From positions 2,069,587 to 2,133,586 of the forward strand of contig OZ253446.1 in assembly GCA_965261245.1 (NCBI GenBank): DNA of 64,000 bases. Direction: 5' to 3'. Origin of the DNA: Spirochaetia bacterium. GTDB taxonomy: Bacteria; Spirochaetota; Spirochaetia; G963692905. Shown piece after piece: positions 43,627-46,041 of this stretch. Below the pieces are notes generated by a model. The model did not search any database, was not told where the DNA came from, and saw only the letters and a list, made by a program, of their open reading frames with translations. A program made the position numbers and the translations under genes. Within the stretch, counting starts at the first letter, position 1, and each line of letters opens with the position of its first letter.

Positions 43627-46041
43627 ATGAACCTTCTAAGAAGAATATCGACCCGGCGCAGTGCTCTCGCCGCACCTGTCATCTTGACAGCAATAGCACT
43701 AACCGCGCTCCTTATAGCGTGCCCCGAAGAAACCCCGCCCCCTGGTAACGGCAGTGCCGGCCAGGCAGGCCCCGGCGAGACCTGTGTCACCGACACCGAT
43801 TGCGACGGTGCCCTGATATGCACCGGCTCCCTGGGTGCCCAGGTATGCACTCAACGCGGTGACGGCGCCGTCGGCAGCTTATGCGGTACCGACAACCACT
43901 GCACCGACCCTCTGGTGTGTGACGCCGGACTCTGTTCCGGCGGCGCAGGCAGCGTCGGCGATACGTGTACCGACAACGATGGGTGCACCGACCCCCTGGT
44001 GTGCGGCAGTAATAGTAAGTGCGGTATTGCATCCGGCAGTTCGTGCAGCACCGATACCCAATGCGCTGGAGATTTGATTTGCACCGGCGCAGGCGGTGCC
44101 CAGGTATGCAGCGATGCCGGCAATGGATTGACCGGTAGCGTTTGCGGTAACGACGACCACTGCGACGGTGCCCTGGTATGCGGGAACGGCCAATGCGGGG
44201 TAGCCGCCGGCGGAACATGTACTGCCGATAGCGATTGTGCCAATGCCCTGATATGTACCGGAGCATCTGGCAGTCTGGTATGCAGTCAACCCGGCACCGG
44301 TGCCGCCGGGAGCGTGTGCGGCACCGATGACCACTGTACCAGCCCGCTGATTTGCGGCAACGGGGCATGCGGGGCAGCCGTCGGCGCTGCCTGCAGTGCC
44401 AATAACGATTGCGCCGGTGATTTGACATGTGGAGCTAATGTATGCTCTGCCGGCTCGGCTGGCGATTCGTGCGGTGCCGATAACCAATGCACCACCCCCC
44501 TGGTATGCAACGGCATCATAGGTAGTCAGACATGCGGTGACGCCGGTACCGGTGCCGCCGGGAGTGTGTGCGGTAACGATAACCATTGTACCGGCACAGG
44601 GTTGCTATGCGTCAGCGGCGCGTGCAGTATGGACGCCGACCGCGACGGCACCCTCGATGCTGACGACATCGACGATGACAACGACGGTCTCATTGAAATC
44701 AGCACCCTGACCGAGCTCCATAACATGCGCTACAACCTTGCCGGTACCACCTACGATGACGAGGACGCAGACACCGGCACGGGTGCAGATGCCGGCATTA
44801 CTACCGGTGCGCCAACTGCAGCAACCTCCAACTGCGCCACCGCAACCAACAGCGTCTACCTGTGCGGCTACGAGCTGACACAAAACCTGGACTTTGATAA
44901 AGATAACGATGGAAGCACCCACACCACCGGCACCCTGGATACCGACGACACCGCCGCCCCGTACTTCGTAGTCGCCGACGGCGGCTGGGAGCCGATTGGC
45001 AGTGGTACTGGTACGGATGCAGCGGCGATAACAGCGAGTTCTTTCCAAGCCATCTTTGAGGGCAACGGCTATACTATTGCCAATATGACTATTAGCCGCG
45101 CGCAGCAGAATGCCGGGCTTTTTGGCAGAACTACGGGTGCCAGTGCACAAATCCGTAATATTGGTCTAACCGATGTGTATATTTCTAATACTACTTCAAC
45201 GGCTGCACCAAGTACTGGCGGACTGGCAGGGATTCTTGGCAGTGATTCAGTTATTATTGCCGGTTATGCTACTGGGGATATCATCAATGGCTCTACAATT
45301 GCTGTCACAAGCGGCGGCTTGACAGGAACGGCAGGTAGTAATGCCACCATTATTGCCAGTTATGCCGATGTAACTATCGCTGGCGGTTCAGCCCGCACGG
45401 GAGCTGTTGGTGGTCTGATAGGGAATTTAGATGGAGGCATCGCAATTGCCAGTTACGCAACTGGAGATGTAGACGGTGGAGCAGGAGATTTTGATTACGC
45501 CGGTGGTCTAGTAGGATGGATGCAAGCAGGCAGCATTACAGCCAGTTATGCTACTGGAGATGCCAATGGGGGTACTGATACTAATGATGAGGGAGGTAGT
45601 TTAATAGGAGTTTACCGCGCGGGTACCATTACCGCAAGCTACGGCTTTGGTACGGCAACTGGCAGGACGATGAGGAGCGGATCGATATCAACCCAACCTA
45701 CAGGGGTAACTACAGCTAACGGGATTACCGCCGCCAATGCCGGCTCCCAATGGTCAAATGCTTCCAACAATACCTTGAACGCATGGGTCTTCGGCAGCGA
45801 CACCCGCGGGACGTGCACCGAACCGACATCACCAACCTCTGGGATAACGTATGCCAGCTATACCACCCGTGCTACTTGTGAAGCAACCACATCGCCCACA
45901 AAAGTTGCAGGCGTGTGGGTACCCGCGGCACCAAAACTCCGCTACGCCGACTACGACGGCCCCGGCACCAAGTATAGCTGCGGGTTGTTTCCCGCCGGCG
46001 TGACCTGCGGGGCCACTGGGGACGAGATACCAGGACAATAG
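43627..46041 (+). CDS. Large surface-protein family paralog (lipoprotein signal, Cys-rich repeats, acidic Ca-binding-like block, GLUG-like repeats, conserved C-terminal tail)
   Basis: Signal peptide MNLLRRISTRRSALAAPVILTAIALTALLIAC; central ~300 aa about 90% identical to paralog 26074-28662; C-terminal KLRYADYDGPGTKYSCGLFPAGVTCGATGDEIPGQ. Confidence 0.6.
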   Translation: MNLLRRISTRRSALAAPVILTAIALTALLIACPEETPPPGNGSAGQAGPGETCVTDTDCDGALICTGSLGAQVCTQRGDGAVGSLCGTDNHCTDPLVCDAGLCSGGAGSVGDTCTDNDGCTDPLVCGSNSKCGIASGSSCSTDTQCAGDLICTGAGGAQVCSDAGNGLTGSVCGNDDHCDGALVCGNGQCGVAAGGTCTADSDCANALICTGASGSLVCSQPGTGAAGSVCGTDDHCTSPLICGNGACGAAVGAACSANNDCAGDLTCGANVCSAGSAGDSCGADNQCTTPLVCNGIIGSQTCGDAGTGAAGSVCGNDNHCTGTGLLCVSGACSMDADRDGTLDADDIDDDNDGLIEISTLTELHNMRYNLAGTTYDDEDADTGTGADAGITTGAPTAATSNCATATNSVYLCGYELTQNLDFDKDNDGSTHTTGTLDTDDTAAPYFVVADGGWEPIGSGTGTDAAAITASSFQAIFEGNGYTIANMTISRAQQNAGLFGRTTGASAQIRNIGLTDVYISNTTSTAAPSTGGLAGILGSDSVIIAGYATGDIINGSTIAVTSGGLTGTAGSNATIIASYADVTIAGGSARTGAVGGLIGNLDGGIAIASYATGDVDGGAGDFDYAGGLVGWMQAGSITASYATGDANGGTDTNDEGGSLIGVYRAGTITASYGFGTATGRTMRSGSISTQPTGVTTANGITAANAGSQWSNASNNTLNAWVFGSDTRGTCTEPTSPTSGITYASYTTRATCEATTSPTKVAGVWVPAAPKLRYADYDGPGTKYSCGLFPAGVTCGATGDEIPGQ

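Follow-up and report, generated by a model that had tools for sequence, protein, structure and literature searches.

A shared block in two inverted lipoprotein paralogs of a Spirochaetia bacterium as a probable trace of recombination within a gene family

We analysed a 64,000-nt stretch of the genome of a Spirochaetia bacterium (contig OZ253446.1 of assembly GCA_965261245.1, positions 2,069,587 to 2,133,586 of the forward strand; hereafter the window), in which two paralogous genes encoding putative lipoproteins share an internal block of high identity. Gene A (43627..46041, + strand) and its paralog gene B (26074..28662, − strand) are long open reading frames (ORFs) of 804 and 862 aa, respectively; they are inverted relative to each other, the repeat arms being separated by 15.4 kb, and their products are 67% identical over 803 aa (the A protein has an exact match in a public collection, and the B protein is identical to P0003). 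Both belong to a family with at least 20 members in the 2.34-Mb genome, five of which (A–E) are located in the window. Its modules are Cys-rich repeats (DUF7107 or, for D and E, another type), an Asp-rich linker that in some members includes a TSP3 repeat, a GLUG region and a tail containing Cys. Gene A combines a lipoprotein signal peptide, approximately six Cys-rich DUF7107 repeats, an Asp-rich linker, a GLUG-type beta-helix and a Cys-containing C-terminal module. Gene B, with an equal repeat count and a GLUG beta-helix, differs from A in a 52-aa N-terminal extension and in carrying another C-terminal module; the extension is also found in P0004 and P0006.

All five proteins are putative bacterial lipoproteins, each with a predicted signal peptide ending in a lipobox Cys that was read directly in the sequence (A ...LTALLIAC, lipobox LIAC; B ...LLFVWAC, lipobox VWAC; C ...LVIAGC; D ...LAITGC; E ...LLYIAC), and exposure of A and B at the cell surface is predicted accordingly. 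In Pfam searches, DUF7107 (PF23416) scored 32.1 bits in A, 24.8 in B and 50.7 in C (gathering cutoff 24.6), and Glug (PF07581) scored 20.6 in B, 58.4 in D and 37.9 in E (cutoff 20.5), with no match in A at E ≤ 0.01. Dickkopf_N (PF04706) remained under its cutoff of 25 in both A (19.7) and C (22.8) and gave no match in B; similarly, Foldseek similarity to Dkk structures was non-significant (E ≥ 0.7). An AlphaFold2 (AF2) model of A reached a predicted local distance difference test (pLDDT) score above 90 for aa ~350-690, with the repeats modelled at lower confidence. For this same region, Foldseek placed the beta-helix of the putative IgA1 protease BACOVA_03286 on top (3n6z, E = 2.7e-5), and streptococcal IgA1 protease beta-helices were also matched. 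The likeness of aa ~350-690 to the GLUG beta-helices of this group (3n6z, 7uvk, 6xja; E from 2.7e-5 to 1e-3) does not extend to the remainder of the protein: A lacks a protease domain, and those proteins in turn lack its N-terminal DUF7107 repeats, its lipoprotein anchor and its C-terminal Cys module.

Each of the two genes appears to be transcribed from its own promoter. Upstream of A lies a sigma-70-type consensus promoter (43591..43620, + strand; TTGACA-18-TGnTATAAT, that is, TTGACA, an 18-nt spacer and a perfect extended −10 element, TG-TATAAT), which is homologous to the B promoter and ends 6 nt before the ATG; this spacing suggests a leaderless A mRNA. The B promoter (TTGACA/TATAAT) is followed by a 5′ untranslated region with an AGGAGG Shine-Dalgarno sequence 6 nt before the ATG. 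Further upstream of A, a GC-rich element (43176..43301, + strand) is approximately 90% identical to 28889-29016 upstream of B; because a third copy is found at 13465-13592, it is a dispersed intergenic repeat and not part of a conversion tract.

Sliding-window identity was far from uniform along the A–B pair, a contrast that is directly visible in the alignment. The earlier note on this DNA had placed a block of about 90% identity at 44272-45190, between N-terminal repeats of only about 75% identity and diverged GLUG-like regions, and our alignment reproduced this pattern: identity was 89.7% over 916 aligned nt (A 44272-45190 versus B 27906-26991), compared with 74.8% over the N-terminal repeats (43753-44271) and 62.5% downstream (45191-46041), and the DNA strings it had quoted were found in the sequence. 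The proposed limits were close, but a two-breakpoint maximum-likelihood change-point scan set the block at 44171..45192 of A (+ strand, 89% identity), slightly wider at the left; by codon alignment and identical runs, its counterpart in B is 26989..28007 (− strand). The residue ranges given for it (228-533 in A, 271-576 in B) hold when counted from the longest ORFs, beginning at TTG 43591 and TTG 28716, but not from the quoted ATGs, from which the block spans aa 182-522 of A and aa 219-558 of B. The inverted-repeat arms are formed by 27395-28389/43789-44783 (995 nt, 85%) and 26890-27393/44788-45291 (504 nt, 81%). In the protein-guided codon alignment, A and B stay colinear all the way from their first Cys-rich repeat through to the stop codon, and the shared region contains one 1-codon gap.

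Synonymous divergence is directly seen to follow the same contrast. Nei-Gojobori synonymous divergence (dS) was 0.28 in the block (bootstrap 0.21-0.37), approximately 4-fold lower than in the N-terminal repeats (1.05; 0.71-1.78) and the C-terminal part (1.03; 0.79-1.44), with intervals that do not overlap; block dS was thus clearly under flank dS rather than equal to it. Nonsynonymous divergence (dN) in the block was 0.075. Considering four-fold sites taken only from codons with identical prefixes, 23 of 144 differed within 44272-45190 (16%), compared with 67 of 163 outside (41%; Fisher p = 1.4e-6), and when four-fold sites were permuted, fewer than 1 in 200 shuffles reached the observed likelihood gain of the change-point statistic (p ≤ 0.005). 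The dS and four-fold contrasts therefore indicate that protein constraint does not account for the block. The 112 mismatches within it (76 transitions and 36 transversions; 64 of the 112 at third positions) show a spectrum of ordinary drift. Divergence between A and B in the block ranged from 6 to 16%; the longest identical run was 50 nt (44314-44363), and eight runs reached at least 29 nt. Because even the longest run is this short, the exchange is ancient relative to strain divergence, while short stretches are still able to support homologous pairing.

We then resolved the block against two further family members, X5 and X2, a tandem pair on contig L001 that was aligned codon by codon with A and B (L001 and two other comparison contigs, L002 and L013, come from one ENA sample). 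The block proved to be two A–B-specific tracts (aa 182-343 and 438-522) around a family-conserved segment (aa 344-437). Sub-tract 1 (44171..44655, + strand; A aa 182-343) covers the last Cys-rich repeats, with identity of 92-97% and a dS of 0.20; here A and B are each other's closest relatives, and the 50-nt run falls within it. The central segment (44656..44937, + strand; A aa 344-437; 282 nt) encodes the Asp-rich linker DIDDDNDGLIEI together with the opening part of the beta-helix domain; the four genes A, B, X2 and X5 are 85-93% identical over it, and paralog E is 78-79% identical to A and B. Its informative sites favoured the grouping (A,X5)(B,X2) by 12:6:2, with an A–B dS of 0.49, and the alternative cassettes DFDKDNDG/LDADD and DFDLDQDG/LDSAD are common to those same pairs. 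Sub-tract 2 (44938..45192, + strand; A aa 438-522) covers the first GLUG beta-helix rungs, with a dS of 0.25 and A–B identity of 84-88%, compared with 66-74% to X2 and 78-85% to X5; quartet counts over aa 438-534 were mixed (12:13:5). The distances to X2 and X5 hint at an A/X2 type for sub-tract 1, with A as donor, and at a B/X5 type for sub-tract 2, with B as donor; a direction of A to B for the former and B to A for the latter is offered tentatively. The central segment is a candidate homology anchor for crossovers.

Tree incongruence along the genes was observed directly in the site patterns. Over A aa 60-140, the quartet AB|X2X5 won by 51:2:2, and over aa 218-337 the patterns were A=B 50, A=X2 14 and B=X2 6; over aa 535-707, AX2|BX5 was the dominant quartet pattern, and over aa 708-804 the patterns were A=X2 71, A=B 12 and B=X2 9. 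A breakpoint analysis of the kind proposed by the earlier note, here a 3SEQ-like random walk, found A to be B-like over approximately aa 55-539 in an X2/X5-like background (p ≤ 2e-4, and p ≤ 2e-4 also with third codon positions alone). We considered whether L001 might derive from another organism and rejected this: the genes flanking X2 and X5 cluster at ≥90% with proteins of the window genome, and the X5 cluster holds two of its proteins, P0241 and P0242. A, B, X2 and X5 are thus paralogs within one species-level lineage, and the incongruence therefore reflects exchange among paralogs.

Nearest relatives were also determined at the protein level in 50-aa windows along A and B, which revealed a patchwork reaching well beyond the pair. 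For A, the nearest relatives were P0004/P0007 of the window genome at aa 51-200, X2 at aa 176-225, B at aa 201-350 and 426-525, and X5 (about equal to B) at aa 326-450; aa 526-700 had no close relative, and X5/X2 were nearest at aa 701-804, a C-terminal module that P0241 and P0242 also carry by protein alignment. B starts like P0004, is nearest to C at aa 176-250, to A at aa 226-575 and to X5 at aa 551-750, and has a C-terminus nearest to other paralogs. Within the block (aa 201-350 and 426-525), no database paralog came nearer to A or B than A and B do to one another. In X5, both types of C-terminal module are present in tandem. The earlier note's view of the mosaic as gene conversion or segmental recombination was supported, but the block is composite rather than a single clean tract, it is old, and it is one patch of a family-wide patchwork. 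As a separate observation, P0241 (637 aa) and P0242 (782 aa), both X5-type and outside the window, differ in Cys repeat number, whereas their sequences from the beta-helix onwards, through to the C-terminus, are essentially identical; this pair is a separate and much more recent duplication or conversion in the family.

Polymorphism between close strains was directly observed at the B locus. Contig L013 (coverage 3.95x) carries the B locus of a close strain whose leucyl-tRNA synthetase (LeuRS) is 99% identical, and it is colinear with the window from 28815 to 39226 (10.4 kb; 94-99% per 300-nt window, almost no gaps). Across the B gene itself (L013:2650-5120 versus window 26034-29134), identity fell to 87-91% in mid-gene with flanks at ~97%, and ~640 nt (window 27929-28815) were missing. 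At its 5′ end, the L013 gene has a signal peptide (MRYLKKSMNRRSAP...LIACPEE) and first repeat of X2/X5 type; this part shows 88-95% identity to X2/X5 compared with 76-85% to B, while the C-terminal part is still of B type. An alternative junction, which the earlier note had suggested looking for, thus exists at the B locus of this related strain. A module has been replaced since the divergence of two ~97%-identical strains; the 5′ module swap together with the ~640-nt loss therefore indicates that shuffling continued after strain divergence. Gene A, in contig L002, was 98-100% identical across both block boundaries and colinear over 9.8 kb; the two copies differed at 24 sites at 1.6x coverage, too few to call micro-conversions. 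No sign of an inversion of the 15-kb interval between A and B was found, as L013 and L002 are both colinear with the window, and GC skew over this interval tracks gene strand and is uninformative on past inversion.

Two further differences from L013 were noted. The FRG/TPR gene adjoining B is, at its 3′ end (window 25605-25904), only 74.5% identical to L013 against a genome baseline of ~97%, and the variable patch may extend into this neighbouring gene. A small gene is present in two tandem copies (window 23948-24301 and 24372-24668), with a 21-nt tandem repeat encoding (T/V)(N/D)(R/K)R(F/I)DD heptads; the matching stretch of L013 (311-1405) holds three ORFs (311-646, 729-1013 and 1100-1405), suggesting copy-number variation.

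We consider it likely that the A–B block is the trace of homologous recombination between paralogs, most simply of non-reciprocal gene conversion. As to mechanism and ALTERNATIVES, the account with the best support is general homologous recombination between paralogs, leading to gene conversion that may or may not have been followed by drift; a RecA-type mechanism and non-reciprocity are what we infer for it. Two full-length, separately promoted lipoprotein paralogs in inverted orientation would have exchanged internal segments, with at least two A–B-specific tracts (aa 182-343 and aa 438-522) transferred on either side of the family-conserved linker and early beta-helix segment; the copies would then have drifted apart by 6-16%, mostly through third-position transitions. 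Segment exchange of this kind would run family-wide among the paralogs, and as a net outcome the cell surface would display N-terminal Cys-repeat arrays, beta-helix bodies and C-terminal modules in new combinations.

Three specialised mechanisms were rejected. Cassette antigenic variation of the vls, tprK or pilE-pilS type does not fit two complete ORFs with their own promoters, and no partial or silent cassettes were seen in the window. For a diversity-generating retroelement, the 47 largest window ORFs included no reverse transcriptase, and the mismatches are without adenine bias (adenines at the 112 block mismatches number 32 in gene A and 25 in gene B). An invertible or shufflon system would be expected to come with an invertase; none was found, the sole recombinase-like genes being two transposases of insertion sequence (IS) type with rve domains, and the contigs are colinear. 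It is thus because of the separate promoters and the lack of a reverse transcriptase and an invertase that the donor-cassette, retroelement and shufflon models fail.

Several points weigh against homologous recombination between A and B as the source of the block. The two are not mutual closest relatives over the central 282 nt, so part of the identity of the block comes from family-wide conservation or homogenisation and not from an A–B event. Rigorous assignment of donor and recipient would take the DNA of the other paralogs of the genome, and the exchange is not recent: with no identical run beyond 50 nt, no event was observed in progress. Coverage of the comparison contigs, which are metagenome assemblies, is low (1.6-4.4x), and some frameshifts occur in them; the surface location and any host-interaction role are predictions from lipoboxes and domain similarity.

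Among the rival explanations, we regard it as improbable that A and B were each converted or assembled from a third family member, now unsampled or lost, that served as a shared donor. The family has at least 20 members, of which DNA was compared for seven only; the 6-16% divergence leaves room for an intermediate donor, and the central segment groups A with X5 and B with X2, all of which would suit such a history. Against it stands the protein-level survey, in which no paralog from the same genome or the related contigs is nearer to A or B at aa 201-350 and 426-525. A still less probable alternative is that one gene was built later from the middle of the other by partial duplication or illegitimate domain shuffling. 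Modularity of this sort is evident in the family: signal peptides, repeat types, linkers (TSP3 present or absent) and C-terminal modules all come in alternative forms, and X5 has its tandem pair of C-terminal modules; yet A and B are colinear with equal repeat number, no indels cross either block boundary, and the flanks are still homologous at 62-75%. Colinearity and homologous flanks therefore fit replacement within an existing homolog.

That no recombination took place, with the block simply representing the part of the protein under the strongest constraint or being held by constraint at the codon or mRNA level, seems to us very improbable. The low dN and the family-wide conservation of the linker and early beta-helix would be expected under constraint, but the same contrast appears at synonymous and four-fold sites, Cys repeats inside and outside the block differ little in other paralogs, those inside being no better conserved, and the tree topology switches along the gene. 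To an assembly artefact, with paralogous reads collapsed or misjoined, we give almost no credence. Such errors might arise from the repetitive nature of these genes and from a source that is probably a metagenome-assembled genome (MAG); nevertheless, the copies differ at 112 block positions, so nothing was collapsed, the independent contig L002 matches A at 98-100% through both boundaries with colinearity over 9.8 kb, and the source contig extends over 2.34 Mb.

A more far-reaching extension of homologous recombination among these paralogs, which we think doubtful, is that the family is a dedicated combinatorial variation system. Segment 44656-44937 (85-93% nt identity) would then serve as the common homology anchor, with the N-terminal arrays and C-terminal modules of more than 20 predicted-expressed genes swapped at appreciable frequency. 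Both the module swap in the L013 B gene and the repeated switch of nearest relative to the two sides of the anchor would fit such a system, but they show neither a high rate nor that the anchor is kept for swapping. If it were true, a host-associated spirochaete would gain a shifting surface repertoire without silent cassettes, reverse transcriptase or invertase.

Comparable exchange is well known among bacterial surface proteins. In Helicobacter pylori, the adhesin paralogs babA/babB and sabA/sabB, at distant loci, swap internal or 3′ segments by RecA-dependent, non-reciprocal recombination, resulting in chimeras; those events are recent and experimentally observed, in proteins unrelated to the A/B family, whereas the A–B tract is old and its origin is read from sequence. 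In Borrelia vlsE/vls, Treponema pallidum tprK and Neisseria pilE/pilS, one expression site is supplied by silent, promoterless partial cassettes; segmental gene conversion reshuffles a surface protein there as it would here, whereas A and B are both complete genes with their own promoters and starts. The tpr family of T. pallidum resembles the present one more closely, as a spirochaete surface multigene family in which full-length paralogs at separate loci carry one another's segments. Its chimeric paralogs (tprGJ, tprGI and tprC/D alleles) differ by strain at a given locus (PMC3656149), which recalls the A/B mosaic and the L013 B allele. Tpr proteins, in contrast, are beta-barrel outer-membrane proteins with no sequence relationship to the Cys-repeat/GLUG lipoproteins, the A/B family is larger relative to genome size, and no tprK-like donor cassettes are visible in it. 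We regard the A–B block as ordinary interparalog recombination by a textbook mechanism, and hence as a new example, not a new principle.

The remaining three family members in the window vary in architecture. Paralog C (47200..50133, + strand), the nearest relative of B at aa 176-250, fuses ~14 Cys-rich repeats to a WVAVG-repeat C-terminal domain that resembles a beta-propeller and has a weak NCBIfam match to glycosylhydrolase F510_1955; its internal repeat units are partly near-identical, suggesting homogenisation within the gene. Paralog D (50222..52930, + strand) combines a different type of Cys repeat with a TSP3 linker, a GLUG beta-helix and a C-terminal module of the B type. Paralog E (59..2230, − strand) is D-like in architecture and reaches 78-79% identity to A and B only in the central segment. 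The LeuRS of the window genome is 60-63% identical to those of Spirochaeta, Alkalispirochaeta and Spirochaetaceae MAGs. A scan of genome contigs with protein A returned only relatives of 28-35% identity, from sponge-associated 'Porisulfidus' (Gammaproteobacteria) and Dehalococcoidia MAGs, which are a mere lead on habitat; a 24-mer common to A, B, X2 and X5 gave 0 matches in a JGI metagenome scan, and searches of the literature on DUF7107 and on GLUG proteins of symbionts yielded nothing relevant.

Other features of the window include two adjacent low-GC genes on the − strand (8343-9554 and 9579-11294), with a third-position GC content of ~0.40 compared with 0.6-0.8 in their neighbours and 96-nt tandem repeats; Pfam matches were to Dickkopf_N (53.7 bits, above cutoff), DUF7107 and WAP, and these genes possibly encode horizontally acquired, eukaryote-like Cys-rich repeat proteins. 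Dispersed GC-rich intergenic repeat families (65-135 nt, 77-96% identical) were found at 7561-7695, 23658-23792 and 33919-34033; at 23748-23831, 61145-61228 and 61233-61316; at 46087-46153 and 46627-46693, flanking a small ORF (46185-46601); and at the three positions given above for the element upstream of A and B (13465-13592, 28889-29016 and 43176-43301). A copy of a dispersed repeat is also present in L001 (5538-5695), and these elements look like repetitive extragenic palindromic (REP) or miniature inverted-repeat transposable (MITE) elements. The two IS-type transposase genes (12325-13323 and 55805-56848; rve_3/HTH_32), one of which adjoins tRNA-Gly (55647-55719), complete the mobile features noted, and an Rfam scan of the window detected nothing beyond two tRNAs. 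At 17500-19254, a single ORF joins a domain like histidyl-tRNA synthetase (HisZ) to ATP phosphoribosyltransferase (HisG), apparently a HisZ-HisG fusion.

The analysis documents recombination mosaicism, with quantitative tests, in an uncharacterised family of lipoproteins that combine DUF7107 repeats with a GLUG beta-helix. Genes of this kind are a trap for short-read assembly and orthology calling. The family takes up a notable share of a small (2.3-Mb) genome and differs between ~97%-identical strains; because of this difference, its genes are probably a fast-evolving interface of the organism with its environment or host.

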